From Candidatus Brocadiia bacterium (lineage in GTDB: Bacteria; Planctomycetota; PUPC01; DSUN01): a stretch of DNA of 64,000 nucleotides. The stretch lies in the NCBI GenBank assembly GCA_046538415.1, contig JBKHIY010000013.1:747-64746 (forward strand). The letters run 5' to 3'. The position numbers and the translations under genes were made by a program. The first letter of the stretch is position 1; each line of letters opens with the position of its first letter. The notes beneath the pieces were generated by a model, which did not search any database, was not told the origin of the DNA, and saw only the letters and a program-made list of their open reading frames with translations. Of the stretch, positions 9,214-49,052 are shown piece by piece.

Positions 9214-10406
9214 GACTCGGCCGGCCGCGGCTCCAGGGACGCGACTGGGCGGCGATCGCCGTGATCGTCGTGCTCCTGGCCATCGGGGTCACGTTCGTGC
9301 GCAGCGCGTCCTACCGCTCGGGGCCCATGGGCGAGGGCTACTACACGGCCAGCCCGGCCAAGCAGGTGGTGTGGGCCGCCTTCGGCGCCGTGGTCTTCGC
9401 GGGCGTGCTGTTCCTCAACTACCGCCACCTCCTGGAGCACGCCTACGTGCTCTACGGGCTGGGGCTGGTGCTCCTGGTGGCGGTGCTCTTCGTGGGGGTG
9501 ACCAGCGACGTGATCCACGCCCGGCGATGGCTCCAGGTGGGGCCCTTCCGCCTCCAGCCCTCGGAGCTGATGAAAATCCTGGTGATCCTGGCCCTGGCCC
9601 GCTACCTGATGTACAGCGAGCAGCACCGCCGCTTCGGCGGGCTGGCCGTGCCTTTCCTCATGGTGCTCGTGCCCATGGTGCTGATCGCCAAGGAGCCCGA
9701 CCTGGGCACCGCCCTGGTGCTCCTGCCCGTGGCCTTCGCGCTGCTCTACGTGGCCGCCGCGCGGTCCCGCCACCTGCTGCTCATCGTCCTCCTCATGGCC
9801 ACCGCGGCCCCCGTGGTGTGGCTCCACATGCGGCCCTACCAGAAGGAGCGGGTGCTCGCCTTCCTGGCCCAGGAGGACCGCAACGTGCGCGAGGAGTACC
9901 AGCTGCGCCAGGCCAAGGCGGCCATCGGGGCGGGCAGGCTGTGGGGCCGGGGGCTGGGGCAGGGGACGCAGAACCGCCTGAACTTCCTGCCCGCGGCCAA
10001 CAACGATTTCATCTTCGCCGTGATCTGCGAGGAATGGGGCTTCGTCGGCGCCAACGCCGTGCTCGCCCTCTACTTCCTCCTCCTCTTGCTGTGTCTGCGC
10101 ACCGCCGAGGACACCCACCACCCCGGGGGGCGCCTCATCGTGGTGGGCGTGGTGGCCATGGTGGGCTCCCAGGTGATCGTCAACACCGCCATGGCCGCGG
10201 GGCAACTGCCCATCGTGGGCCTCACCCTGCCGCTGATCAGCTACGGCGGCTCCTCGCTGCTCTCCTCCCTCATCGGCCTCGCCCTGGTGGTGAACGTGAG
10301 CACCTACCGCCAGGTGGCCCTGGCCGGCGACGACTTCGATCCCGAGGCCGAGGCCCGCCGGGCCACGGCTCCCATGCCCGAAGAAAGTTTCATGAGGCCC
10401 TCCTGA
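9210..10406 (+). CDS. rodA: Peptidoglycan glycosyltransferase RodA (SEDS family)
   Basis: A 10-TM protein with conserved SEDS motifs LQPSELMKI and NDFIFAVICEEWGFVG. The Shine-Dalgarno AAGGAGGGGGG precedes the ATG. Confidence 0.9.
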   Translation: MRLGRPRLQGRDWAAIAVIVVLLAIGVTFVRSASYRSGPMGEGYYTASPAKQVVWAAFGAVVFAGVLFLNYRHLLEHAYVLYGLGLVLLVAVLFVGVTSDVIHARRWLQVGPFRLQPSELMKILVILALARYLMYSEQHRRFGGLAVPFLMVLVPMVLIAKEPDLGTALVLLPVAFALLYVAAARSRHLLLIVLLMATAAPVVWLHMRPYQKERVLAFLAQEDRNVREEYQLRQAKAAIGAGRLWGRGLGQGTQNRLNFLPAANNDFIFAVICEEWGFVGANAVLALYFLLLLLCLRTAEDTHHPGGRLIVVGVVAMVGSQVIVNTAMAAGQLPIVGLTLPLISYGGSSLLSSLIGLALVVNVSTYRQVALAGDDFDPEAEARRATAPMPEESFMRPS

Positions 10407-14695: not shown

Positions 14696-17600
14696 TCATT
14701 GCTGAGCGGCGATGCGGACGATGCGGAAGCGCGGCGACTCGCCGGGCACCTCGCCCAGGATCCGAGGGGGCCGCACGGCGGGCCGGCGCGTCTCCTCCTC
14801 GACCACGGCGTAGAGCGAGCGGCCCAGGAGCTGGAGGGCGTGGAGCCGACCCTTGCCCACGGACACCTCCTGAGCCTCCTCGCCGGTCCGCGGATCCAGG
14901 GTCAGCACGGCCGCGGCCTGGGCGTCGACTACGTCGCTGCGGCTGAGGCCGAGGAAGAGCGCCTGGGGAGCAGCGCACCAGTCGTCCAGCGTGGTGTCCC
15001 GCTCGAGGGCGTACTCCCAGGCGACCTCGCCGCTACGGGCATCCAGGCGCACGAGGGTGGCCACGCCGGCTCGGCGCGTCGCTGCGTAGAGAGCCTGCGG
15101 GGTCAGGGCAGCCCGCTGGAGGCTCTCTCCGCGCTGGAGGGCCAGCGACCAGAGGGCCTCGCCGCTGTCCGCCCGGCGGCATTCCAGGACCTCCAGGCCG
15201 CGGCCGTCCTCCCCGTGGGCCACCAGGCGCTGCCCCGCGACCCACAGGCGGCGCGAAGCGAAGTTCTCCACCCGCCGGCTCCACACCAGCTCCTCCGCCG
15301 CGGCGTCGTAGCAGCCCAGGGTGGAGCCCATGGCATAGCACAGCCGGCCACGGCCCGCGGGAGCGAGCAGCGGCGGCGTGAGGGCCCGCCGGGCCTCGAC
15401 GCGGAAGAGGAGCCGCCCGTCGAAAGGGTTGAGGATCTCGACGGCCGAGGGCTGCGCGTAGGCCGCCACCAGCCCGTGCTCCCAGAGGGCCAGCCGGCGC
15501 AGCGATGGGCCGGCCAGGGGGCGGGTCCACAGCACGCGTCCCGTCTGGGGGTCGAGCGCGAAGAGCCGCTGACGCTCGTCGGCGATCGCCACGATGCCAG
15601 GGGCGCTGGCGGAGGCCCACGCCGCGCCGTCCGCCTCGAGGCCCCCGGCGCTCTGCTCCAGGGCGAACGACCAGGCCCGGGCCCCCCCCTCGACGCGGAT
15701 GGCGTCGAGGCGCTGCTCGCGCCGCACGAACACGCAGCCGCCGGCCAGCCCCACGAAGCTGTGGGGCTGGAGGTGGAACTCGCCGGCCTGGGTGGGCCGC
15801 TCGCCCAGCTCCAGATGTATCTTGTGCTCCTCGCCGTCCCGCAGGAAGCGCACGGCCACCCGGGTGCCCGGGCGGCGGGCCAGGCAGGTGTCGATCAGCT
15901 CGGTTACGTGGCGCACCGCTCGAGCGTCGAAGCTCACGATCACGTCGCCGTTGCGAAGCCCCGCCCGCGCCGCCGGCGTCCCGTGCACCACGCCTCGCAC
16001 GAGCACCCCGCCCTTGCGGCGATCGGCGTCCAGGATATGGATGCCGATCCACCCCGGGCGGTCGGCCCACCGCAGCGCCCCGTCGGCCGCCTCGCGGCAC
16101 TCGAAGGAGCGGCCCACCAGGAGGAAGAACTCGTCCGCCCCACCGCGGTCGCCCGCCACGTAGAGCTCCGACGAGCCGTATTCCTGGGGCACCCCCCACT
16201 GGACGGCCAGCGGAGGAGCCAGCGTAGGGGCCTCGGCGGGCCTCGGGGCGCGGAAATGCTCGGCCAGGAGGGCCTCGGGCTCGACCTTCGCCGAGGCCGC
16301 ACGTCCGTCCACCACGGCTCGCCACTCGGGGTGCTCGCGCCCCAGGGCGCGCAGGGCGCCGCGGGCCATGGCCCTGGCCCCTGCCCTGGCGTGGACCAGG
16401 GCCAGGCGGTAGAGGGCCTCGGGGGCGTGGGGCGAGGCGGGATAGTCGTGGGCCAGGCGGTGGAGCCACAGCTTGGCCTGGGCGAGCCGCCCGTCGCGCC
16501 GCGCCGCGGCCGCCAGGCCGAGGAGGGCCTGCGGGGCCGCGCGGCTGTTGGGATAGCGGCGCACAACCTCCTGAAGGCTCCGCTGACTGCCCTCGCGGAG
16601 CGCCGCGGCAGCTTCCTGCTCGAACCGCTCGTAGAGCCCCCTGCCGGCCCGGGCCAGCAGGTCGCCCAGCCCGCGGCGGGCCTCTTGCCAGTCGGGCCCG
16701 CGCGGCTCCGCGGCGGCGAGCACATGGTGGTAGGCCTCGATCGCTTCGTCCCATTGGCGAAGCGTGGTGCACAGGCGGGCCACGCGGAGGTGGAGGCACG
16801 GGGCCTCCAGGGGCTCGGCGTAGCGCAGGGCGGCCCGGGCGGCGTTGAGGGCCATGTCGTGCCTGCGGGCCTCCTGGTGGCGGCGCGAGAGGGCGGCGTA
16901 GGAGGCGGACAGGCGTCGGCGGACGTCGCCCAGCTCGCCGGCCGACAGGGCCTCGGGGTGCTGGGCGGCCAGCTCCAGGGTCTTCTCGAACGCGGCGGCG
17001 GCGGCCGCCAGGTCGCCTTCCCACTGGTGCTCCTTGGCCACGGCGAAGTGCACCCTGGGGTCCTGCGGGTTGCGGGCCAGCTCGCGCTCCAGGGCCGGGC
17101 GCGGCTCCAGGGGGGAGAAGACGTTGAGGGTGAAGGGGGTAGCCACAAACAACCTGCCCTCGGCGATCAACAGGTCGCCCGAGGACAGATCGGCGTCCCA
17201 CGTCGGCTCGTGGGTGCTCTTCCACTCGGCCCAGGACGTCTCGGCCAGCTTGTGCCCCGTCCTGGCGTCCAGGAACAGCAGCCCCCCGTCCACGGGCAGG
17301 TGGAGGACGTGGCCGGCGAGGGCCGGCCGGCCCACCACCTCGGCCGGCACGTGGGCCTCCCATTCGAGCTCGCCTTCGGCGCTCAGCGACGCGGCCCGGC
17401 GGCCCGCGAGGTAGACGCCGCCTCGGTCGGCCGCGGCCAGGTAGTGGTGGTCCTGACGTTCGGCCCGCCAGAGGAACCGCCCGGTGGCCAGGTCCAGGGC
17501 GTAGAGGAAGTCCGAGTCGACGGGCGTCACGTAGGCCACGCCGTCGGCCACGACAGGCGTGGGCGTTCGCCAGCCGTCGTGGAGGACGATGCGTCCGGTC

Positions 17601-19264
17601 CGCACCGCGGCTTCGTCCGCCTGGTCGTAGCGAAACAGCCAGGCCAGTCGCCCTGTGGCGGTCTCCGCCGCGGCCACGATGCCCCCGCCCGCGCAGGCGA
17701 CCACCAGCCCATCGCCGGACGCGGGCATTCCCTCGAACCACTGCTGGTGGAGGCCGATGCGGAAGAAGCGGCTGGCCGGACGGCTGCACACGAAGCGCCG
17801 CCACAGCAACCCGCCGTCGCGGGCACGCAGGGCGCACAGATGGTACTCGTGGCCCGTCTCCCCGGCGCGCAGGCCGACCATCAGGCGCTCCCCGCGGGGG
17901 AGTGGCGGCGACACGAACCAGCCGCTGGCCAGCGGCTTGGGCAGATGCTCCTCCGCACCATGCTGCCAGCGCAGGGCGCCTCGCGCCGCGCCCACCGCCA
18001 GCATCTCGCCCACCATCTCCTGGCCGCGCACCCGGTGGGAGGTGCGCAGCATGGGGAAGGAGCAGTAGACCCGCTGGCCCCGGGCCGAGCACCACCAGCG
18101 GCCCACGGAGGACGACGTGGCGGTGGAAAAGGGCTCGACCAGGCGCCCGCTCGTGGGCGGCCAGGGCAGCTCCCACAGCAGCTTCCCGGAGTCCAGGTCG
18201 CGAGCCACCACGCCCCCCCTGGAGGGGTAGATCACCCGCCCCTGTCCCACCGCGGGCAGCACCCACACGGGTGGGCGGTAGGGCCTCGCCGCACGGCGCG
18301 CGGCCTGGCGCCCGGAGCGGAAGGCCGCGGCCTGGGCCACGGCCTTGGCGTGGATCAGATCGGACCACAGCAGGGGGCCTGGGCGGACCGGGGTCGCCGC
18401 GTCGGGCCGCGCCGGGCAACCGCCCGGGTAGGCCCACTCGCTGGCTTCCGTGGCCAGACGGGGCAGGCGGTCCAAGACCTTGGCATACGCGGCGAGCGGG
18501 ATACGCCGGCCGGCCACCGCCAGCGTGGCCCCCGGGCCGGCCTCGTTCGCCGCTCGGCGGAGCAGCGCCCGGGCGGCCGCGGGACGGCCCAGGCGCTGGA
18601 GGCAGGTGGCCAGCTTGGCCGCCGTGGCCACCAGGTCGGTATCCGTATCCGAGCACAGCCGGAGCAGGCGCCGCCAGGCGCGGAGGGCCTGGCCCGCCTT
18701 CCCCCGGGCGAGCCACGCCGTGGCCAGGCGGTCGAGCGCGTCGTCGCCCCAGGAGCTGAGCAGAAAGCGCTGCGCCACGAGCCTGAGCGCGGCGAGGTCG
18801 CCGCTGGCCACCGCGGCGTGGTAGAGCTCCGCCGCCCGCCCGTCCACCGCCGCCCGGTAGACCCGGCGCCCCTCGGGGGGCAGGGCGGCCAGCCGCTCTT
18901 CGACGAAGCTGCGGATAGGCACGTAGCGGCGAGGCTCGGGATGGCACAGCTCGTGGGGAGCCTCGTCCACCAGGCGCTGGTAGAGCTCGATGGCCTGGCT
19001 CCATCGCTCGTCCTGCTCCAGCCGACGGGCCCGCTCCAGGGCCGCGTTGGGCCGGGAATGCGGCGAGTAGTCGGCCGTCACCGCCCCTTCGGGCTCGGCC
19101 AGGCTGGCGCCCGAGGAGGGCCGGGGGGCCGTCGCCGCCAGGCTCCGGCGAAGAGCGGCTGCCAGGCGCCCTCGGGCCGTGGGCTCCGGCTCCGCGCCCC
19201 AGCTCGCCGTCGCTGCCAACAACAAGACCAGCGCGTTGACCGCTGGACGCATGCAGAAACTCAC
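14696..19264 (-). CDS. Giant secreted multidomain protein with TPR-like regions, two PQQ-like beta-propellers and a PDZ domain
   Basis: 1522 aa. The N-terminal signal peptide is [22 protein letters not shown]. Repeated motifs such as ALDxxTGxxLW and AxDAxTGxxxW resemble BamB/PQQ blades. A PDZ-like segment reads [33 protein letters not shown] central TPR region resembles YbgF. Its stop lies 35 bp from the moxR start. Confidence 0.7.
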
Positions 19265-19485
19265 TGAAAACTAGAACATACGACGGATACCGAACCCATC
19301 TTAGTATGCGCCCCGAGGGAAGTCAAGAACGCCCACGGCGGCGGCGAACGACTGGCGGCGGCCGCAACCGCACGCTGCGACGCCCGCGTCTTCCTTCCGG
19401 CGAGCGGCGGGACGCGGCCCGGGGCGGCGCCCTGGCCCACAGCCGCGGGCCGGTGGCTCCCGGAGCGCGTAACCTGCAAGGGCGC

Positions 19486-25442: not shown

Positions 25443-26111
25443 TCAGTTGCTGAGCTGCCAGAGCAGCGACTTGTCGGCCCCACCGCTGTCGGCGCCCACG
25501 CCTCGCAGCAGGTCAATGTCGGTATTGGTCCTGAATTCGACGTGGCTGTCGAAGAACAGGACGCTCATACCGCCGTTGTTCTCCTCGCCGTGGTTGATGG
25601 GGTCTTGGGTGTCGTCGCTACCCATCGGCATGTTGGGCGGGAAGTTGTCGGGGATGGCCCGGGCCACCCGCGTACCGCCCGCTTCGGTCATGCTGTAGTA
25701 GTGCATGCCCGCATAGCTGACGGTACCTTCGTCGAAGGTGGTAGCGGCGGTTTCCGAGCCGATCCGGAGCCCGTCCTCGTTCGTGTCGGGCGAACTCGGG
25801 CAGATGAAAACGCCGGGGTCGGGCACCACCCTGGTCCAATAGAGACTGGCCAGCCATTCGGCTCCGTTGTAGCTGTCGCCGCTTGCCGACCGCGTCCGAC
25901 CGAGCGGACACGGATAGAAGCGGTTGTCGCCCAGCTCGGTCAGGTATGTGGCCATACCCTTGGCGAGCTGGTTGAGGTTGTTACGACAACGGATCCGTCT
26001 GGCCTCCTCACGAGCCCTGGCCAAGGCAGGCAGAAGCATGCCCGCCAGAATTGCGATAATGGCAATGACGACCAAGAGCTCGATGAGGGTAAAGCCGCGC
26101 CTTTTCTTCAT
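25443..26111 (-). CDS. Prepilin-type N-terminal cleavage/methylation domain protein with DUF1559 (type II secretion pseudopilin-like, H-X9-DG)
   Basis: 222 aa. The class III signal is MKKRRG|[20 protein letters not shown], with G at -1, F at +1 and E at +5. The DUF1559 body carries the [20 protein letters not shown] motif. Confidence 0.85.
25446..26033. repeat. Tandem-duplication copy B, the second DUF1559 gene body
   Basis: See copy A. Boundaries are approximate. Confidence 0.6.
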
Positions 26112-26171
26112 CTTGTCTCACCCCCTTTCTGGGTTGAAAAGGCTATAGGCTGTGACCTGACACCACCCTAA

Positions 26172-39758: not shown

Positions 39759-41249
39759 GTGCATTGTCCCTCCTTCCCCGAGTTTCAGCGGCTGGCTCGC
39801 ACGGCCAACGTGATTCCCGTCTACCGCCAGCTCCTGGCCGACACCCTTACGCCGGTCTCCGCCTTCCAGAAGCTGGACGTGGCGGACCACGGCTTCCTCC
39901 TGGAAAGCGTGACGGGGGGCGAGCGGATCGGACGCTACTCCTTCCTGGGGGGCGGCCCGCCGGCCATCCTCCGGGCGCGGGACCACCGCGTGGAGATCGT
40001 CAGGGGGCAGGCCGTCAAGCAGTACGAGTCGGCCGACCCGCTGGGCGAGGTGGAGCAGCTCCTGGCCCACACCCACCCGGCGCGGCTGCCCGACCTGGAG
40101 GCCTTCACGGGCGGCGTGGTGGGCTACCTGGGCTACGACGTGGTGCGCTACGTGGAGGACCTGCCCCACGCCCCCAGCGACGACCTGGGCCTGCCCGACA
40201 TCTACCTCCTGGCCTGCGAGACCCTGGTGGTCTTCGACCACGTGTTCAAGACCATCAAGGTGGTCACCAACGCCCGGCTCGACGGGCGCTCGGCCCGCGA
40301 GGCCTACGACCAGGCGGCGAGCCGCATCGACGCCGTGGTCGAGCGCCTGCGCACCCCCGTCACCCAGGTGACCGACGACGTGCGCCCCGCCGGCGAGGTC
40401 ACCGTGCCCTTCGAATCGAACTTCACCCGGCAGGACTTCGAGGACGCCGTGCGCCGCTGCCTGGACTACATCCGCGCCGGCGACATCATCCAGGTCGTCC
40501 TCTCTCAGCGGCTGGCGGTCGAGACCCAGGCCCACCCCTTCGACGTCTACCGCGTGCTGCGGGTGGTCAACCCCTCGCCCTACATGTTTTATCTCCGCCT
40601 GGGGGAGCTGACCCTGGTAGGGGCCTCGCCCGAGGTGATGGTCAAGCTGGAGGGGGATAAGGTGACCGTGCGGCCCATCGCCGGCACCCGCCCCCGCGGG
40701 GCCACTGCCGAGGACGACGAGCGCCTGGCCGCCGAGCTGCTCGCCGACCCCAAGGAGCGGGCCGAGCACGCCATGCTCCTCGACCTGGGGCGCAACGACG
40801 TAGGCCGCGTGGCGCGCTACGGCTCCGTGACCGTCGACGAGCAGATGGTGATCGAGCGCTACTCCCACGTGATGCACATCACCTCCAACGTCACGGGGCG
40901 GCTCCGCCCCGACGCAGGCCCCTTCGACGTCCTCCGCGCCTGCCTCCCCGCGGGCACCGTGTCCGGAGCCCCCAAGGTGCGGGCCATGCAAATCGTCGAC
41001 GAGCTGGAGCCCACCCGCCGTGGCCCCTACGCCGGGGCCGTAGGCACCATCGATTTCCACGGCAACATCAATACCTGCATCACCATCCGAACCATCGCCT
41101 TCCACCAGGGCAGGGCCTACGTGCAGGTGGGCGCCGGGATGGTGGCCGACTCCGTGCCCGCGCGAGAGCACGAGGAGACCATCAACAAGGCCAAGGCCCT
41201 GCTCCGGGCCATCGAGCTGGCCGAGCAACTGTCCGGCGGCCACGGCTAA
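39759..41249 (+). CDS. trpE: Anthranilate synthase component I
   Basis: LLESVTGGERIGRYSFLG is the Trp-binding region. The chorismate-binding C-terminus carries GAVGTIDFHGNINTCITIRT. A GTG at 39759 after GGAGG is preferred over the Arg-rich ATG at 39714. Confidence 0.9.
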   Translation: MHCPSFPEFQRLARTANVIPVYRQLLADTLTPVSAFQKLDVADHGFLLESVTGGERIGRYSFLGGGPPAILRARDHRVEIVRGQAVKQYESADPLGEVEQLLAHTHPARLPDLEAFTGGVVGYLGYDVVRYVEDLPHAPSDDLGLPDIYLLACETLVVFDHVFKTIKVVTNARLDGRSAREAYDQAASRIDAVVERLRTPVTQVTDDVRPAGEVTVPFESNFTRQDFEDAVRRCLDYIRAGDIIQVVLSQRLAVETQAHPFDVYRVLRVVNPSPYMFYLRLGELTLVGASPEVMVKLEGDKVTVRPIAGTRPRGATAEDDERLAAELLADPKERAEHAMLLDLGRNDVGRVARYGSVTVDEQMVIERYSHVMHITSNVTGRLRPDAGPFDVLRACLPAGTVSGAPKVRAMQIVDELEPTRRGPYAGAVGTIDFHGNINTCITIRTIAFHQGRAYVQVGAGMVADSVPAREHEETINKAKALLRAIELAEQLSGGHG

Positions 41250-42457
41250 CGGCCCGCGGCCAGACCCTCGTAGAGTTCCGCCATCTGCCCCAGGAATCGC
41301 GCCTCGGTGTAGTGCGTCAGCACTCGCTGGCGAGCCGCGGCGGCGAGCTCACGACGCCATCCGGCATCGTCCAGAAGCCGTGCCACGGCCCGGGCGAAGC
41401 CCCGCCAGTCCCCGGGCTCGATCAGCAGCCCGCTTCGCTCGTGCTCCACGGCGTCGCGGTTGCCCGTCACGTCCGATGCCACGGGCACCACGCCGCGGGC
41501 CATGGCCTCGAGCAGCGAGTAAGGCAGGCCCTCGTAGCGGGAGGGCAGGACCACGGCGTCGAAGGCGGCGACCAGGTCGGCCGCGTCCGCGCGGTGCCCC
41601 AGCACGCGGATGGGCAGGGACGGCGACCACAGGACCGGCTCGGCGGGCCTCAGGTCGCGCACCACCACCCGCCACACCGGGGGCGCGTAGCGGGGCTCCA
41701 GGCTCCGCAGGTAGCGGGGATTGTCGGTCCGACCGACCAGGAAGGCGTGGACGTCGGGGCGCGGGCGCCGAAGCTCGCTCACCGCAGAGAGGTAGGTCTG
41801 CACGTCCTTCTGCGGGGTCAGCCGGCCTACGAAGGCCACGGCCCCGGCCTCGTCGGCCAGCTCCAGCTCCCGCCGGTAGCGTGCCCGCAGCGCCCCGGGG
41901 GCGGCTTCGGGGGGCCGAATGCCGTTTTCCACGACCAACAGCTTCTCCTCCTCGCACAGCCGCGCGCGGCGAGCGGTCTCCCGCTGGCTGGGGGCGACCA
42001 GCACGATGCGGTCCGCCCAGCGCGCCGCGCGGCGCTCGAGGCGCCGATAGAGCCAGCCCAGCCGCGTGTCCGCCCGCTCGAAGGGGAAAGTGTGGGGGGT
42101 ATGGACGACCGCCGGCACCCTCGCGCGCCGGGCGGCCAGGCGGCCCAGGAAACCCGCCTTCGCCGCGTGCGTATGCACCACGTCGTAGCTCCCGCGTTTC
42201 ATCAAGCGGGTGAGCTGGCCGAGGGCGGCGCAATCGGCCCGCGCGCTGGGGGCCCGCTTCATGGGCACCACCTCGACCTCGCAGCCTTCGGCGCGGAGGC
42301 CCTCGACCACCTCCTCGCCCTCGCCCCCTCGCTCCACGGAGCAGGCGAGGTGGAGGTCGAAGCGGCGGCGGTCAAGCCCCCTAAGGATCTGCTCGACGTG
42401 CTTGCGCGCCCCCCCGGCGTAGGCCTCTACGACCTCCAGGATTCGGATGGGCTTCAT
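41246..42457 (-). CDS. Glycosyltransferase family 4 (GT-B, EX7E type)
   Basis: 403 aa. The N-terminal RILEVVEAYAGGARKHV and the C-terminal LPSRYEGLPYSLLEAMARGVPVVASD carry the EX7E motif. It is convergent with trpE by 4 nt. Confidence 0.85.
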   Translation of the reverse strand: MKPIRILEVVEAYAGGARKHVEQILRGLDRRRFDLHLACSVERGGEGEEVVEGLRAEGCEVEVVPMKRAPSARADCAALGQLTRLMKRGSYDVVHTHAAKAGFLGRLAARRARVPAVVHTPHTFPFERADTRLGWLYRRLERRAARWADRIVLVAPSQRETARRARLCEEEKLLVVENGIRPPEAAPGALRARYRRELELADEAGAVAFVGRLTPQKDVQTYLSAVSELRRPRPDVHAFLVGRTDNPRYLRSLEPRYAPPVWRVVVRDLRPAEPVLWSPSLPIRVLGHRADAADLVAAFDAVVLPSRYEGLPYSLLEAMARGVVPVASDVTGNRDAVEHERSGLLIEPGDWRGFARAVARLLDDAGWRRELAAAARQRVLTHYTEARFLGQMAELYEGLAAGR

Positions 42458-42641: not shown

Positions 42642-43319
42642 GTGCTGATAGAAGTACATAGGAAGTCGGACAAGAGGGCACAGCAGGAGGCCCGGGCGCG
42701 AAGAAGGGCGAAGAGATGCCGGGCCGCCGCGCTGGCCGCGGCCTTCGCCGCCACCATCGTCGCCTGCTTCCTGCTGGGGCGGCTGGCCAGGCCCGCCGAG
42801 GACTGGTCGCGCCAGCATACCGATACCGACGACGACCCCAAGGTCTTCCGTAACTCCTTCCTCGGCCTGTGCATGCTGATTCCCGACGAAGACGACTGGC
42901 GGATGGTCAGCGATCCTTCCCACTTTCGCTTTCAGGGCCTGAAGGGCGTCAACAAGGTGCTGGAAATCGACCGGATGGTCGGCCCCGGGGAAAGCCGCCG
43001 CCAGTGGGCGCGGATGGACCTCTTCGTCCATCCCCTCTACGGCCAGGTGGAGCCCGACCACGTGCTGCGCGTGCTCGAGTTCCGGCCCCAGCGTCCCGGC
43101 TTCCGCATCGTTGACGAGCGGACGGTGACCATCGGGGGAGAGGAGGGGACGGCGCGCACCGGTGCCTGGAGCCTCGGGGGGCGGCGGTTCCGGGCCATCA
43201 ACTACGCGGTGAGCCACGCCGAACGCCTCTTGTGCTTCGTCGCGGTGTGCGAGGCGGAGGCCTTCGCCCGGCACCGCGCGCGCTTCGACCGGATCGTTGC
43301 CTCCGTCCGCTTCGAGTAG
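42642..43319 (+). CDS. Cassette partner X1, a small membrane-anchored hypothetical protein
   Basis: 225 aa with a GTG start. A basic N-terminus is followed by a TM helix AAALAAAFAATIVACFLLGRL. The C-terminal motif LLCFVAVCEAEAFARHRARFDRIVASVRFE is shared with X2 and X3. Confidence 0.5.
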   Translation: MLIEVHRKSDKRAQQEARARRRAKRCRAAALAAAFAATIVACFLLGRLARPAEDWSRQHTDTDDDPKVFRNSFLGLCMLIPDEDDWRMVSDPSHFRFQGLKGVNKVLEIDRMVGPGESRRQWARMDLFVHPLYGQVEPDHVLRVLEFRPQRPGFRIVDERTVTIGGEEGTARTGAWSLGGRRFRAINYAVSHAERLLCFVAVCEAEAFARHRARFDRIVASVRFE

Positions 43320-43633: not shown

Positions 43634-45094
43634 ATGGGTGGACTGCGAACGAGGAACCGAAGGGCCTTCGTCGCCGTCGAGGTGGCCGCCGTGGTGGCCG
43701 TGATCGCGCTGCTGCTGGCCATGGGCTTCATGCTCTATCGCGGCATGCGGCTCGCCGCCCGGGCCTCCCTGGCCGAGAGCAACCTCAAGCAGGTCTCCAC
43801 GGGGATGGAGCTCTACTTCCGCAAGTACAACAGCTATCCCCCCGAGGGCAGCGACCTGACGGCCGAGCTGGCTCCCTTCGTGACCGACCCCGACGCCTTC
43901 GCCAACCCCCTCAAGGAGGAGCAGAGCCCGGGCGAGACCCTCAACGCCCTCTACAAGGAGCCCTCCCTGGAGCAGCTCGACAGCCCCGACCACTACATCA
44001 CCTCCCTGGTCTCCGAGGACGGCCGCACCGTGGTGGTGCTGAAGACCGGCGGTAAGGTCGAGCGCCGCAACGACTTGCGGTTCGACCCCGACGCGCCGCC
44101 CGGCGACCTGGTGGCCATGCTCGACCCGGAAACGACCACCAGCTCGGGCGATGGCGACGACGACGTGGTGATCCTTGCCGCGCCCGACGAGCCCACCGAT
44201 ACCAGCTCGCCCGATGACCATAGCAACGAGGTCGTCCCCGGGGTGATCAAGGTCCTCGACGACGTGGTCGTGGACTTCGAGGTCATCGAGACCGCGCTCA
44301 GCTCCGGCACCACGGACCTGGACGTCTTCGTGGAGGGCAAGTTCGGCAAGGCCATCACCTACGTAGTGGTCCAGGACGGGGTGAGCCGCGTGAAGTTCGA
44401 GGACGCCCCGGAGGGCCTGGGCGAGGACGACGCCCAGGAGACCGACCGCTTCGTGATGAGCGTCCAGGGCACCACCGACTCGGTCACCGTCTCCACCAAG
44501 GCGGCTACGGGCAAGGCCACTACCACCCTGCCCGCCGAGGTGGGCGCCACGGCCAAGGACGAGCTGGGCTTCGTGATCACCGTCGAGAGCATCTCCGACG
44601 ATAGTGTCTACACCCTCTCGGTGAGCAGCGAGAGCAACGAGCACGCCCTCAGCCACGTGGAGTTCGACTTCGGCGAAGGCACGGAAGTCGAGGTGACCGA
44701 GGACGTTACGCGGATGAGCGGCGAGCCGCTCTTCGGCGGCGCCGACGTGGACGGCGGCGAGTTCGACTCCAAGACCCTCGCCAAGGACCAGTCCTTCGCC
44801 CTCATCGGCATCGCCGGCACCGCCACCTACGCCAGCGACGTCCACACCTCCCAGGTACTCACCCTGCGCAACGGCGATCAGGCGTTCGAGGACCCCGCGA
44901 CGAGCAACATCCCCATCACCGGCACCCCGCTGGAGGGCCTCATCGACCCCGTCACCGGCACGGTCACCATCGAGAACGACCAGGTGCTGTTCCTCTTCGA
45001 GCTGGGCACCATCGACCCCAGCAGCAGCGCCTTCGACCTCGACGACCTCGTCGTCCTCGCCACCCTCAAGAAGACCGCCACCAGCGAGCAGTAG
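43634..45094 (+). CDS. Cassette protein Y1, a large acidic type IV pilin-like protein
   Basis: 486 aa, preceded by the Shine-Dalgarno AAGGAG. The class III signal MGGLRTRNRRA|FVAVEVAAVVAVIALLLAMGF has F at +1 and E at +5. A pilin-like helix follows. Then come Asp/Glu/Thr/Ser-rich linkers and two beta-rich modules, A (KFEDAPEGLGEDDAQETD…HALSHVEFDFGEG) and B (VLTLRNGD…DLVVLATLKK). Confidence 0.6.
   Translation: MGGLRTRNRRAFVAVEVAAVVAVIALLLAMGFMLYRGMRLAARASLAESNLKQVSTGMELYFRKYNSYPPEGSDLTAELAPFVTDPDAFANPLKEEQSPGETLNALYKEPSLEQLDSPDHYITSLVSEDGRTVVVLKTGGKVERRNDLRFDPDAPPGDLVAMLDPETTTSSGDGDDDVVILAAPDEPTDTSSPDDHSNEVVPGVIKVLDDVVVDFEVIETALSSGTTDLDVFVEGKFGKAITYVVVQDGVSRVKFEDAPEGLGEDDAQETDRFVMSVQGTTDSVTVSTKAATGKATTTLPAEVGATAKDELGFVITVESISDDSVYTLSVSSESNEHALSHVEFDFGEGTEVEVTEDVTRMSGEPLFGGADVDGGEFDSKTLAKDQSFALIGIAGTATYASDVHTSQVLTLRNGDQAFEDPATSNIPITGTPLEGLIDPVTGTVTIENDQVLFLFELGTIDPSSSAFDLDDLVVLATLKKTATSEQ
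43664..43873. repeat. Conserved pilin-helix coding segment, copy 1
   Basis: It is about 85% nt-identical to 46207..46416, with FVAVEVAAVVAVIALLL…NLKQVSTGMELYFR. Boundaries are approximate. Confidence 0.5.
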
Positions 45095-45143
45095 GGCGCA
45101 GAGGACGCCGCCGAGATGAGCACCTCCATCGGGACAAAGGCCC

Positions 45144-45180
45144 GCCTGGGCACGGAGCCGCCTGCCCGTGCCCAGGCGGC
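45144..45180 (+). other. GC-rich hairpin downstream of Y1, a possible attenuator or partial terminator
   Basis: GCCTGGGCACGG-agccgcctgc-CCGTGCCCAGGC is a 12-bp stem. It is followed by an A-rich rather than a U-rich tract. Confidence 0.35.
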
Positions 45181-45250
45181 CAAAACTCCACTGAAACCGA
45201 GGACACCACGAGCCCAGAGCTGGCAGCCGCATCCACCGGACACTCAAGCC

Positions 45251-45859
45251 ATGAACACACGTCGACGCACCGCCCGCCTCCTGCTCGCCGCACTGGGCGC
45301 CGCTCTCCTGGCAGCGGGGTGCAGCAGCTCGAAGGACGAGCGGTACTACCGCGGCCCGGCCTTCGAAGTCGGTAAGCCCCCTTCCCAAGGGTGGATCCTG
45401 GTCTCCAAGCCCAGGAACTTCGCGTTCGCAGCGGCCCGCGGCCACGTGGGGCTCGCGGACACGGCGGAGGGCAAGCTCGTGGAGCTGACCAACCCCGCGG
45501 CCCGGGCCTCCGCCGAAATCTACCTCGTCGACACCACTGCCGCCGACACGCAGACCGTCGTCACAGCTCTCCTTCGCCAGCCGCCGAGGCGCCACCTGAC
45601 CGAGGGGCCGAGGAGACGCGTCCTCGTCGACGGCCGCGAGGGAGTCGGAAGCATCTTCGCCTGGCGACAGAGCCGCAACGCCACGACCTACTATCTCTAC
45701 TGCGTGCGAGTGCCGCTGGGCACCAAGCTGTGGTGCTTCGTGGGCACGGCCCCGGCCGAAGCCTTCCCTCGCCTGCGGTGGGACTTCAAGACGGTGCTCC
45801 GCACCGTGCGCTTCAAGGCCCCTGCTTTGGCCACGGCGGGCGTGAACGGCAAAGGATAA
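45251..45859 (+). CDS. Cassette partner X2, a lipoprotein
   Basis: 202 aa. MNTRRRTARLLLAALGAALLAAGCSSSK is a lipobox LAAGC. The C-terminal motif LWCFVGTAPAEAFPRLRWDFKTVLRTVRF is homologous to X1 and X3. Confidence 0.5.
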   Translation: MNTRRRTARLLLAALGAALLAAGCSSSKDERYYRGPAFEVGKPPSQGWILVSKPRNFAFAAARGHVGLADTAEGKLVELTNPAARASAEIYLVDTTAADTQTVVTALLRQPPRRHLTEGPRRRVLVDGREGVGSIFAWRQSRNATTYYLYCVRVPLGTKLWCFVGTAPAEAFPRLRWDFKTVLRTVRFKAPALATAGVNGKG

Positions 45860-46176
45860 TCCCCGGGTGGGGAGGGGGCAAGGCGCGACGACTCCGCGCC
45901 GTCCGCCCACCGGTCGCTCGCCGGAACCCGGGCCCCGCGCGACGGGGCCCAACCCCCGCGATGCGTAGGCGCCTCGCCACCGGCGAGAGCCCGTCGCGAC
46001 GGGCGCCAACCGCCCGCACAATCCCACAACAGCCTGTGGCATAGACGCTTAGGCCTCCAGGCCGGTCCCCCCCGGGAAACCGCGGCCCGAGGCGGCACGG
46101 GGCTTGCAAGCGGGCAGGGACGGTGGCGAAGGAACTGACCGCGCCTGGTCTCACGCACTGGGGAGAGGAGAGAACA

Positions 46177-48087
46177 ATGAGCGGGTCCCGACGCACGAAG
46201 AAGACGGGCTTCGTGGCCGTAGAGGTGGCCGCCGTGGTGGCGGTGATCGCGCTGCTCCTGGCCCTGGGCTTCATGCTCTATCGAGGCATGCGACTGGCGG
46301 CCCACGCCTCCGTCGCCGAGAACAACCTCAAGCAGGTCTCCACCGGCATGGAGCTCTACTTCCGCCAGTACAGCAGCTATCCGCCGGAGGATAGCGACCT
46401 GACCGTCGAGCTGGCGCCCTTCGTCGAGAATCCGGAAGTCTTCGAAAACCCCCTGCTGGACGAAGAAGCTCCCGGCGAGACCATCAACAAGCTCTACCGC
46501 CAGCCCACCCTCGAGGAGCTCGACCGCCCCGACCAGTACATCACCGCCATGGTCTCCGATAACGGGAAGACCGCGGTGATCCTCAAGACCAACAGCAAGG
46601 TGGAACGGGAGGACGACCTGCTCTTCGACCCCGACGCCCCCGCCGAAGAGCTCCTGGCCGTCCTCGACCCCGACCTGGGCGAGGAGGAGGACGCGCCCGA
46701 CGCGCCCGCAGAGCCCGTAGAGGAGGAGGCGGGCTTCGACTTCCACGACGACGGGGAGGTCGAGACCAGGACCTGCTCCGACCTCCGCATCTTCATCGTC
46801 GGCTCCCAATTCGGCTACGAGGACGGGAGCCTGGTGGACGTCGTGACCGAGGCCGACCTGGGGGACGGCTGGTTCGACCTCTTCAACGGCCAGCCCGTGC
46901 GGGCTGGCGACGAGTTCACCCGCGACAGCGTGCCCGCAGGCACCCGGGTGGTGGTGAAGGGCGAGATCGCCGGGGCCTACGAGCGCTGGCTGTGGAGCTA
47001 CTACGGCTACCCCCTCTCCTACAGGTCCACCGACGGCACGGGCCAGGTGCTCACCCTCCAGCGGGGCGACACCCCGGTCTACTTCGAGCCCGGGTTCCCC
47101 TGCCAGGCGCCCGTGGGCGAGCTGCTCGCCCCCTACGTGGACCCCCAGACAGGCACCGTGACCATCGCCGAGAACGAGGCGTTGTGGCTGTGGGACTTCA
47201 ATCCCCTGGAGACCGAGTACGGCATCGACTTCCAGGACCTCATCGTCCTGGCCACGGCCACCGTCGCCGAGCGCGAGTGTGAAGAAGACGACGAGGGCGG
47301 CGGCTCGGAGCCGCCTTCCGAGGACCCTGAGCCCGTGCTCGCCATCGCCTCGGACGGCGTGAGCGAAGGCGAGATCGAGGACACCACGTCGAGCGTCGAG
47401 TACGTGGTCGAGCGCGACGAGGACAACACCATCAAGTTCGAGGACGCTCCCGTGGGCCTCGGCGAGGACGGCGCCCACCAGACCGACGAGTTCGTCATCT
47501 CCGTCGAGGGCGACGTGACCAGCGTGAAGGTCAAGACCAAGGCGGCCACGGGCACGGCGACCAACGATGTGCCCCTCGGTGGCAGCGTGACCGACACCCT
47601 GGGCTTCCGGACCAGCCTCGAGCCCCTGGGCGGCGGCCAGTACAAGCTCTCGGTCACCAGCGTGAGCAACCGCCACGCCCTCAGCCACGTGGAATTCGAA
47701 TTCGAGGGCGGCGAGGTCGTCGGCCCCGATGGCCCCTACGCGGCCACCCGACGCGAGGAGGCCACGGTTCCCAGTAGCTATACCGCCACCGCGGTGATCA
47801 CCAACACCGCCTCGGATCCGCAGGACGCCGCCGCCGACGTGCAGCTCGGCATCCAAGTGGTCGAGGGCGCGAGCCACGTCGAGGCCATCCAGTGCCAGAC
47901 CGACGTCGGCTCCGTGCCCAGCGGCGAGAGCCATTCCGTGGACATCACCGTTACCACGAAGCCGAGCTGGCAGACCGCCTTCGGCGAGCACATCCGCGTG
48001 CGAGTGACCATCGAGAACGAGGCGAACGACCCCGACGTCAACGAGGGCAAGAGCGTGACCTTCACCTTCGACGGGCCGGAGGGCTAG
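46177..48087 (+). CDS. Cassette protein Y2, a large acidic type IV pilin-like protein
   Basis: 636 aa, preceded by the Shine-Dalgarno GGAGAGGAGAG. The class III signal MSGSRRTKKTG|FVAVEV… is the canonical G/F…E at +5. The pilin helix is about 85% nt-identical to Y1. Module order is B' (VLTLQRGD…DLIVLATATV), an acidic linker, A' (KFEDAPVGLGEDGAHQTD…HALSHVEFEFEGG), and then an extra C-terminal beta domain. Confidence 0.6.
   Translation: MSGSRRTKKTGFVAVEVAAVVAVIALLLALGFMLYRGMRLAAHASVAENNLKQVSTGMELYFRQYSSYPPEDSDLTVELAPFVENPEVFENPLLDEEAPGETINKLYRQPTLEELDRPDQYITAMVSDNGKTAVILKTNSKVEREDDLLFDPDAPAEELLAVLDPDLGEEEDAPDAPAEPVEEEAGFDFHDDGEVETRTCSDLRIFIVGSQFGYEDGSLVDVVTEADLGDGWFDLFNGQPVRAGDEFTRDSVPAGTRVVVKGEIAGAYERWLWSYYGYPLSYRSTDGTGQVLTLQRGDTPVYFEPGFPCQAPVGELLAPYVDPQTGTVTIAENEALWLWDFNPLETEYGIDFQDLIVLATATVAERECEEDDEGGGSEPPSEDPEPVLAIASDGVSEGEIEDTTSSVEYVVERDEDNTIKFEDAPVGLGEDGAHQTDEFVISVEGDVTSVKVKTKAATGTATNDVPLGGSVTDTLGFRTSLEPLGGGQYKLSVTSVSNRHALSHVEFEFEGGEVVGPDGPYAATRREEATVPSSYTATAVITNTASDPQDAAADVQLGIQVVEGASHVEAIQCQTDVGSVPSGESHSVDITVTTKPSWQTAFGEHIRVRVTIENEANDPDVNEGKSVTFTFDGPEG
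46207..46416. repeat. Conserved pilin-helix coding segment, copy 2
   Basis: See copy 1. Confidence 0.5.
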
Positions 48088-48302: not shown

Positions 48303-49052
48303 ATGCAGCGCTCGACCATCGCCATCGCCGCAGCGCTCCTGGCCGCAGGCGGAGCGGCGTTTCTCGCCGGGCGCGCCGGCACTCGCCGCAAGCTGGTCCC
48401 GGCCGTGGCCATGGCCCGGCCGGCAACCGTCGGCGCCCAGGATGCCCGCTCGGAGCCGCCGGCCGCAGACATCCCAGCCTCCCGGGCCGTCCGTGAGGCC
48501 CCCGCTGGCAACGAGCAACGGCCGCAGCCCCTCGCTGCGCCGGAACCGGCGGAGCGCACCGTATGCCAGACCTTCGAAGACGACGAGCTGGAGGTGAAGG
48601 TCGAGAAGCCGAAGAGCACGGACTGGACGGTGTCGACCAAGAGGACCAACTTCCGCGACCCCGTGCGCCATCCGGCCAAGGTCCTGGAGATGCGAAGAAA
48701 CCCTCGATCCGGGGAGCCGAAGTTTGCTATCATAGAGTTGTTCGTCGCGGAGATTCCCTCGGGCTCGACGGCGTGGCAGGAGGTGGAGCGCTTCGAGAAG
48801 CTGGGCCGACGCGGCGTCCTGGCGTCCTTCGAGGTGGTGGAGGAGGGGACGGTGCGAATCGGTGGGCGGGCGTTCACCCGCCGCGTGTCGCTATGCAGGT
48901 GGCGGGGCCGCCGGGAGCAAGCGAAGTTCCTGAGCGTCCATACCGTGCTGGAGGGCAAGCTCTACCTGCTGATGGGCTATGCGTCGGCGGAGCACTTCGA
49001 CGAGCTGCTGCCGGAATTCGAGCAGGCGTTCGCGTCGCTGGAGATTGGCTGA
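48303..49052 (+). CDS. Cassette partner X3, a membrane-anchored hypothetical protein
   Basis: 249 aa from an ATG after the Shine-Dalgarno GAGGGGGA. The N-terminal TM helix is IAIAAALLAAGGAAFLAG. The C-terminal motif LYLLMGYASAEHFDELLPEFEQAFASLEI is shared with X1 and X2. Confidence 0.5.
   Translation: MQRSTIAIAAALLAAGGAAFLAGRAGTRRKLVPAVAMARPATVGAQDARSEPPAADIPASRAVREAPAGNEQRPQPLAAPEPAERTVCQTFEDDELEVKVEKPKSTDWTVSTKRTNFRDPVRHPAKVLEMRRNPRSGEPKFAIIELFVAEIPSGSTAWQEVERFEKLGRRGVLASFEVVEEGTVRIGGRAFTRRVSLCRWRGRREQAKFLSVHTVLEGKLYLLMGYASAEHFDELLPEFEQAFASLEIG

Follow-up and report, generated by a model that had tools for sequence, protein, structure and literature searches.

Two predicted multi-modular pilin-like proteins of a planctomycete carry the same domain in nested and in tandem form

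Two genes of a Candidatus Brocadiia bacterium (Planctomycetota), here called Y1 and Y2, lie on the 64,000-nucleotide stretch of contig JBKHIY010000013.1 (positions 747 to 64,746, forward strand) that we analyzed and that we refer to as the window. Their products share homologous domains in different arrangements. We consider it likely that Y1 and Y2 are old paralogues within a small family of Planctomycetota proteins that are type IV pilin-like and multi-modular, that the difference in their arrangement is itself old, and that both work as pilins. By alignment and profile matches, Y1 consists of a pilin module (N) followed by a B1 module with an A module nested inside it, i.e., N-B1[A], while Y2 carries the modules N, B2, A, and C in tandem. 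The carrier part of each protein would be a class III (prepilin) signal peptide with a small pilin fold of ~155 aa, followed by a flexible acidic/proline linker and then by beta-sandwich "effector" modules drawn from a shared set. The two genes and their modules, in window coordinates, are:

43634..45094, plus strand: Y1 gene, 486 aa, NCBI ACLF0G_04480; modular pilin-like protein, N, linker, B1 with A nested; open reading frame (ORF) with a GGAG site 5'
43634..44131, plus strand: Y1 module N (pilin, aa 1-166); class III signal peptide motif; predicted AlphaFold2 (AF2) fold; 69% identity to Y2 1-166
44210..44350, plus strand: Y1 module B1, N-terminal part (aa 193-239); aligned in A3 with the B1 start of 12 relatives; B profile positions 1-48; predicted local distance difference test score (pLDDT) ~88-97
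44351..44704, plus strand: Y1 module A (aa 240-357), inside the B1 loop; BLASTP to Y2 406-514, 54%, E 7e-28; A-profile match 234-357
44705..45079, plus strand: Y1 module B1, C-terminal part (aa 358-482); 52% identity to P0002 B1 positions 75-195; B-profile match 341-482
46177..48087, plus strand: Y2 gene for a modular pilin-like protein of 636 aa (NCBI ACLF0G_04490); GGAG site 5' of the ORF; order of parts N, linker, B2, linker, A, C
46177..46674, plus strand: Y2 module N (pilin, aa 1-166); Gly at -1, Phe at +1, Glu at +5; predicted AF2 fold; weak GspG match (TIGR01710, E 0.0047)
46732..47280, plus strand: Y2 module B2 (aa 186-368), uninterrupted; 71% identity to P0002 B2 over 183 aa; B-profile positions 3-183, E 2.6e-69
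47392..47718, plus strand: Y2 module A' (aa 406-514); follows B2 in tandem, separated from it by an acidic/proline linker; BLASTP to Y1, module map, and A profile
47719..48084, plus strand: Y2 module C (aa 515-636), Ig-like beta-sandwich; 46-47% identity to P0002 C1; seven to eight strands, pLDDT 88-96

The window has a G+C content of ~70%, and the ATG of each gene is preceded within a few bases by a GGAG-type ribosome-binding site; the genes and their motifs lie where an initial annotation, made from the sequence alone, had put them. Y2 does contain the second acidic linker that this annotation described and also the Ig-like domain at the C-terminus, whose fold (module C) retrieved generic Ig/beta-sandwich matches only. 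No sigma-70-like promoters were found, and terminator-like sites were not above chance. Y1 is identical to a protein retrieved in our search for relatives (P0022), as is Y2 to another (P0001), which was also independently assembled in a Logan contig. With Y2 identical in that contig and the nested architecture recurring in JGI samples, an assembly chimera was ruled out.

A BLASTP comparison of the two proteins yielded three blocks of similarity: the N-terminal block (1-166 in both, 69% aa identity, E 5e-66), the module A block (Y1 240-352 to Y2 406-514, 54% identity, E 7e-28), and the module B block (Y1 398-477 to Y2 281-360, 39% identity, E 3e-10). The E-values of the last two blocks, along with profile matches that run the length of each domain, indicate homologous modules rather than the low-complexity acidic matches that the initial annotation had allowed for. 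The A and B blocks stand in reversed linear order, as that annotation had reported; its description of Y1 as module A followed by module B, however, did not hold, for the residues ahead of A (193-239) are the start of B. Likewise, what it had delimited as module B is homologous between the proteins but amounts to only the C-terminal half of a widespread extracellular domain of ~180 aa, and its B and B' belong to different subtypes, B1 and B2. These subtypes are homologous over their full length (~180 aa) at ~33% identity (alignment A11), and they stand in tandem in longer relatives (N-B1-B2-C-C). The B' module of Y2 is 71% identical to the B2 module of the relative P0002 versus 41% to its B1, and the B module of Y1 is 52% identical to P0002 B1 versus 30% to P0002 B2. 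By these identities, the Y1 module is of the B1 type and the Y2 module of the B2 type, and the two are distinct old paralogues.

The placement of A inside B1 rests on alignment and profile evidence. The 47 residues before A in Y1 align with the B1 start in 12 relatives (alignment A3), and when residues 240-357 of Y1 were excised in silico, the split B match became one contiguous match (HMM positions 1-180, 117.8 bits, E 7e-38). We therefore read A as nested in a variable hairpin loop of B1. In alignment A3, the A modules of Y1, P0023, and P0024 fill this loop between the "..VPVVVEG.F" strand and "LFGG.DVDGGE", and P0023, P0024, and another representative (P0069) all show the order B(1-49), A, B(19-183) when mapped with profile hidden Markov models (HMMs). 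The same B1 loop of P0005 holds an unlike insert of ~70 aa that is rich in His, Asp, and Gly, and at the related locus L018 a gap of similar size separates the two B1 matches. The AF2 models, predicted from alignment A4 for Y1 and A2 for Y2, have mean pLDDT values of 84.8 and 82.4, respectively, with the B1 fragment before A in Y1 at ~88-97. The start of A in Y2 has a lower pLDDT of 58-73, probably because module D, found in relatives only, was misaligned onto A in eight rows of alignment A2. MAFFT alignments that included fragments (A5-A8) misplaced A, C, or D.

Some further features of these modules may be noted here. A Cys near the start and another just past the end are found in 32 of the 34 contiguous B modules of the pilin family, and this pair is likely a disulfide clamp; in Y1, P0024, and P0025 both are lost together (for Y1, window 44210-44300 and 45050-45091). 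A His/Asp/Gly-rich segment of ~60 aa (HGNN.DHDDEDNPGQGGGNHGAD.GYDDDGYDDDENGGG) is located at ~252-320 of P0005, in the B1 loop that holds A in Y1, and in P0002, P0004, P0007, and P0008 it is located between the first and second C modules (C1 and C2), so that a second element occurs at two different positions. The C-terminal part of the Y1 pilin domain (aa 127-169, window 44012-44140; TVVVLKTGGKVERRNDLRFDPDAPPGDLVAMLDPETT) weakly resembles the B core QVLTLRNGD.P..FDP...LIDP.TGT, with a domain E-value of 0.02, which may be coincidental or point to an ancient relationship.

We searched 5.8 billion proteins and mapped the seed modules onto the 25 relatives that were returned, all of them from metagenomes or Planctomycetota metagenome-assembled genomes. 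The architectures are:

N-B1-B2-C-C: P0002, P0004, P0005, P0007, P0008
N-B1-B2-C-C-D: P0003, P0009
N-B1-B2-D-C-C: P0006, P0014
N-B1-B2-B2-D: P0010
N-B1-B2-A: P0012
N-B2-A: P0011 (partial)
N-B2-D: P0013, P0015, P0017, P0019, P0021
N-B2: P0016, P0018
N-B1-B2: P0020
N-B1[A]: Y1, P0023, P0024
N-B2-A-C: Y2

Domain shuffling, which had been proposed for Y1 and Y2 at the outset, is thus real and pervades the family, with at least 10 architectures built from N, B1, B2, A, C, and D.

Several findings speak to the age of this shuffling. The A modules in the nested position (Y1, P0023, and P0024) form their own clade at 69-75% identity, while the A module of Y2 is 55% identical to that of Y1 and 56-57% identical to those of P0011 and P0025. 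The N-domains of Y1 and Y2 are 66% identical in this comparison, and each is equally close to P0005 from another sample. The N-domain tree, in which Y1 groups with P0024 and Y2 with P0002, is not ordered by architecture. Between the two genes, the longest run of identical DNA is 21 nt, and no further, silent, or partial copies of any module were found in the 64 kb window. Because the nested form recurs elsewhere, and because of the A clade, the N-domain identities, the short exact match, and the lack of silent copies, we conclude that the shuffling is old and not a recent swap. The reversed order would then reflect two independent and old placements of A, one nested in B1 and one after B2, in lineages that kept different B paralogues.

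The pilin nature of the carrier is suggested by both sequence motifs and predicted structure. The class III signal peptide reads ...KKTG/FVAVEVAAVVAVIALLLALGF in Y2 and ...NRRA/FVAVEV... in Y1 (the slash marks the putative cleavage site); module N of Y1 has a basic leader of 10 aa, Ala at -1, Phe at +1, Glu at +5, and a hydrophobic helix followed by a small beta-sheet. A basic leader (at most 11 aa), Glu at +5, and a hydrophobic helix are present in each of the 21 family members whose N-terminus is complete. Position -1 is Gly in 18 of them and Ala in three, Y1 included, and position +1 is hydrophobic in 19, the other two (P0007 and P0008) having Ser. The Pfam N_methyl model scored above threshold in the relatives P0020 (30.3 bits) and P0015 (25.1 bits) and was not reported for Y1 or Y2. 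In the AF2 models of both proteins, the predicted pilin module has a helix of ~60 residues (2-65), short helices, and a three-stranded sheet (121-126, 133-137, and 141-145), with pLDDT ~85-95. Weak matches to GspG/T2SSG recur on residues 40-100. On motif and model grounds, Y1 and Y2 are filed as type IV pilin-like proteins and not as members of GspG or DUF1559.

If Y1 and Y2 work as pilins, each would be cleaved by a prepilin peptidase after the Gly or Ala at -1 and would enter a type IV filament via its hydrophobic helix. Since the subunit is bulky, its place in the filament would most likely be the tip, or else it would be present at low abundance. The acidic linkers would display the B, A, and C modules, and these would bind an external ligand, perhaps a surface or a polysaccharide.

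Both A and B exist independently of pilins, so the proteins join a pilin module to extra modules found elsewhere, as expected of modular pilins. The A profile matched 20 proteins, most of them stand-alone secreted proteins of ~165 aa, and by these matches A is an autonomous domain of ~115 aa that occurs as a stand-alone protein, as a tandem module, and as a nested insert. The B profile, run against 1.84 billion representatives, matched at least 1000 clusters (counted at 50% identity) at E<=1e-3 and 686 at E<=1e-10. The best 142 B matches beyond the first set include 87 with an ordinary signal peptide, ~25 with prepilin-type N-termini of clearly different bacterial lineages (e.g., KGFTLVE), and 2 with archaeal pilin N-termini. 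Two haloarchaeal proteins, one of Halomarina rubra and one of Natronomonas sp. (L013 ~9300-10396 and L014 9149-10297), match Pilin_N at 54 and 42 bits and end in a B-like module. Like Y1 and Y2, they join a pilin N-terminus to a C-terminal B core (VLRNGD..P...DP..G.I.L.DNQAIFLFDFN...YQDAVVLVSF); unlike Y1 and Y2, they have an archaeal-type signal peptide and no A, C, or D modules, and the detectable similarity, at 29-33% identity, is confined to the C-terminal half of B. Judged by these matches, a B-like domain has been joined to pilins in both Bacteria and Archaea. Outside pilins, A and B co-occur in all three arrangements, i.e., B-A, A...B, and A nested in B.

The B representatives P0046-P0187 (for which the window copy at 46732-47280 can serve as the reference) include stand-alone secreted proteins of ~230-250 aa, and B also occurs in giant surface proteins with NosD/beta-helix or Big_1 domains. 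Many stand-alone A proteins (P0027-P0037) and 39 of the 142 B-domain proteins share a conserved C-terminal ...YD (also FD or MD; e.g., ADAAYD, EPLYD), which may be a sorting or processing signal; we know of no described motif that matches it.

We examined the genomic context of Y1 and Y2 by tblastn of the window genes against fetched loci of related Planctomycetota and by Pfam annotation of the syntenic genes. The conserved frame consists of a glycosyltransferase gene (minus strand), a repeated unit of an X gene and a pilin gene ([X, pilin]n), a further X gene, rsgA, a HAD hydrolase gene, a gene for a 294-aa product (minus strand), and a DHDPS gene. In the window, the genes next to Y1 and Y2 are:

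41246..42457, minus strand: glycosyltransferase-like gene that forms the conserved left flank; syntenic with L012 by tblastn (60% identity)
42642..43319, plus strand: X0, membrane-anchored small protein of the upstream partner type; paralogous to X1 and X2; found at this position also in L008, L010, L012, L018, and L019; weak DcrB match, E 0.019
45251..45859, plus strand: X1, lipoprotein-like, between Y1 and Y2; paralogue; an X1-type gene also follows a Y1-type gene in L002
48303..49052, plus strand: X2, rsgA-proximal; paralogue; next to rsgA in L006, L008, L010, L012, L015, and L020
48979..50016, plus strand: rsgA, conserved right flank; Pfam of syntenic genes and tblastn; followed by the HAD hydrolase gene, the 294-aa gene (minus strand), and the DHDPS gene

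In its longest reading frame, rsgA shares 74 nt (48979-49052) with the end of X2. The true start of rsgA is probably downstream, since the alignments to relatives begin no earlier than rsgA residue 31 and mostly at 37-38.

Related genomes carry one to three pilin genes of differing architecture at this locus. The contents of the compared loci are:

Window: X0, Y1, X1, Y2, X2
L012: X0-type, one N-B1-B2-C-C pilin, X2-type
L008: N-D, N-B2, X, N-B2-D, X
L010: X, N-B2-D, X, N-D
L015: N-B2-D, X
L006: N-B1-B2-C-C, X

The presence/absence and order polymorphism that the initial annotation had suggested looking for among other genomes thus exists at a syntenic locus, and functional variation between loci is plausible. 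X0, X1, and X2 are paralogues of ~25-30% identity that alternate with the pilin genes and whose positions are conserved in related loci. Each begins with a membrane anchor or a lipobox and has a ~150-aa domain, and there are three positional subtypes. Searches with X against Pfam returned DcrB for 2 of 13 members (best E 0.0052) and, weakly, PsbP (E 0.1), and the X profile against the Protein Data Bank (PDB) returned EagT6, PA0094, and DUF1795 at non-significant E-values of 0.36-1.7, all across X 116-200. These mutually consistent matches are weak hints of a DcrB/PsbP/DUF1795 (Eag chaperone-like) fold. A word-index search for relatives of X returned only 3 clusters.

The locus comparison raises the question of how the window came to have two pilin genes. 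It is possible, though we find it doubtful, that Y1 and X1 together are a cassette that entered, by lateral transfer or recombination, a locus that once had one pilin gene, rather than the outcome of a local duplication. Consistent with such an insertion, L012 has X0, one pilin gene, X2, and rsgA inside the same flanks; L002 has a Y1-type gene followed by an X1-type gene; the Y1-type gene of L003 adjoins unrelated genes; and the N-domains of Y1 and Y2 group with those of different relatives, as noted above. However, the GC content and GC3 of Y1 match the surroundings, neither mobile-element genes nor flanking repeats were found, and the Y1-type orthologues are known from short contigs only, which are too short to inform on the wider context.

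We would like to note that several observations weigh against the assignment of Y1 and Y2 as modular pilins. Y1 has Ala and not Gly at -1, and Ala at this position is less well tolerated by prepilin peptidases. The scores for TIGR01710 (17.0 bits for Y2 and 12.3 bits for Y1 versus a curated cut-off of 88.85) and PF08334 (12.8 versus 21) fall short of the GspG/T2SSG cut-offs, and the DUF1559 model (PF07596) reached 12.9 bits versus 23.3, on residues 38-74 only. The 64 kb window, in which the neighbors are housekeeping genes, contains neither machinery for pili or type II secretion nor a gene for a prepilin peptidase. The A and B profiles found no match among PDB sequences, no Pfam or NCBIfam model was found for A, B, D, or X, and Foldseek searches with the whole models retrieved generic tandem beta-sandwich, Ig, and phage tail/receptor-binding matches only, with low TM-scores, because of which no ligand can be named. 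Finally, the packing of the B1 halves around A in Y1 is suggested by the alignment and by confidence values, not by contacts.

Some of these observations would also fit proteins that are not filament subunits at all, with the helix as an uncleaved membrane anchor and the B, A, and C modules acting in the periplasm or on the cell surface, e.g., as binding proteins, perhaps with the membrane-anchored X proteins. We regard this as unlikely. It is favored by the lack of pilus machinery nearby, by the Ala at -1 in Y1, by the ordinary signal peptide in most B-domain proteins, and by the X neighbor with an N-terminal anchor that each pilin gene has; in addition, prepilin-like proteins with no assigned role are very numerous in Planctomycetota, and the window has another one, a DUF1559 gene at 25443-26117. 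Nevertheless, the leader and Glu at +5 are kept in every complete member, and Glu5 of type IV filaments matters for assembly, not for anchoring. Moreover, the full pilin fold is predicted and not the helix alone, and B is joined to unrelated bacterial and archaeal pilin N-termini, which argues for display on filaments as a recurrent solution. The gene at 25443-26117 (minus strand) is a separate prepilin-type gene that matches Pfam N_methyl at 41 bits and the DUF1559 start as well, a kind of gene that is typical of Planctomycetota.

The initial annotation had read the arrangement of Y1 and Y2 as recent cassette recombination with possible antigenic variation, i.e., a recent exchange of the A and B cassettes like that in pilin antigenic variation, and although the reversed blocks and the similar helix-coding DNA could be taken to favor it, we hold this to be largely refuted and very improbable: A/A' and B/B' are only 55% and 39% identical at the protein level and each is closer to modules of other organisms, P0023, P0024, and P0069, which come from other samples, share the nested architecture, no run longer than 21 nt is shared, the upstream regions are unrelated, both genes are full-length with a start of their own, and the window lacks silent, partial, or extra module copies. 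The high DNA identity of the helix, given as about 85% in that annotation, came to 89% across helix codons 11-65 and, in the N-terminal domain, to 79% across 486 nt. Of 33 four-fold sites in the 165 nt that encode the helix (43664-43828 versus 46207-46371), 23 are identical between Y1 and Y2, versus 19 of 36 in the rest of the N-domain and 7-17 of ~25 in between-genome pairs, and third-position identity in these 165 nt is 78% versus 38-71% in between-genome pairs. This synonymous excess is the sole hint of exchange and is suggestive at best; it may weakly hint at local gene conversion or at strong codon constraint.

The comparison with antigenic variation at pilE/pilS of Neisseria is instructive. 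As in that system, pilin genes of related sequence lie close together. Gene conversion in the Neisseria system depends on long conserved tracts and on silent partial copies that lack promoters; in contrast, Y1 and Y2 are both complete genes with a short longest identical run and no silent copies in the window.

The old modular pilin family that we propose more closely resembles known modular pilins. In Streptococcus sanguinis, PilB is a pilin module with a vWA domain and PilC a pilin module with a lectin domain (Raynaud et al. 2021, PMC8179133; PMC9934059), and modular pilins have been proposed to sit at filament tips and bind ligands (PMC8179133). The Y1/Y2 family likewise has an N-terminal pilin module, a linker, and autonomous modules that also exist outside pilins, in many architectures that arise by "tinkering", and its members are predicted to be tip-exposed binding subunits. 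Unlike PilB and PilC, they have up to five extra modules without database signatures, one of which is nested; they belong to a diderm planctomycete and are known here from sequence and models. The type IVb minor pilins CofB and TcpB (PMC8179133, discussion) also have large, signature-less beta-rich domains after the pilin module on a flexible linker, and CofB trimerizes and initiates assembly (PMC8179133, discussion). However, no sequence relationship to CofB/TcpB was detected, and the Y1/Y2 locus has no pilus operon. GspK, a minor pseudopilin of the type II secretion system (PMC8179133, discussion), offers a precedent for a domain inserted within a domain of a pilin-like subunit, though in GspK an alpha-domain lies inside the pilin module's own beta-sheet, whereas in Y1 a beta-domain lies inside an effector module and the pilin module is intact. 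Planctomycetal prepilin-type DUF1559 (PF07596)/PulG-like proteins share with Y1 and Y2 the phylum, the kind of N-terminus, and an unknown role, but their C-terminal modules are unrelated. Thus, the modular-pilin design is known; what is new is an unannotated example in which one domain is nested, a syntenic locus whose pilin architecture varies and which has a dedicated partner gene, and two domain families without any database model.

Because planctomycete pili-like fibers bind dextran (PMC5394234), polysaccharide binding by the modules of Y1 and Y2 is a reasonable guess, and if it is correct, these proteins are molecular candidates for substrate-binding fibers on planctomycete cells. Apart from this, the two genes give a precise anatomy of a pilin carrier with exchangeable effector domains and of a domain-in-domain insertion at a recurrent insertion loop, a conserved chromosomal slot in uncultured Planctomycetota carries very different pilin architectures, and A and B are two unannotated domain families that merit family definition.

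A broader proposal, which we consider improbable when its parts are taken jointly, would make the interval between the glycosyltransferase gene and rsgA a diversification hot spot where cassettes of a modular pilin and an X gene are gained, lost, or re-tooled, so that the surface filaments of related Planctomycetota would differ in the B, A, C, and D modules at their tips. B would be an unrecognized, very widespread ligand-binding domain that Bacteria and Archaea have repeatedly recruited onto pilins, and the X proteins would be dedicated Eag/DcrB-like partners that hold or deliver the bulky pilin before assembly, e.g., by shielding its hydrophobic helix. Any role for the X proteins is one that we infer. 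Elsewhere in the window, positions 14696-19270 (minus strand) encode a protein of ~1520 aa with BamB/PQQ beta-propeller repeats, TPR repeats, and a PDZ domain.

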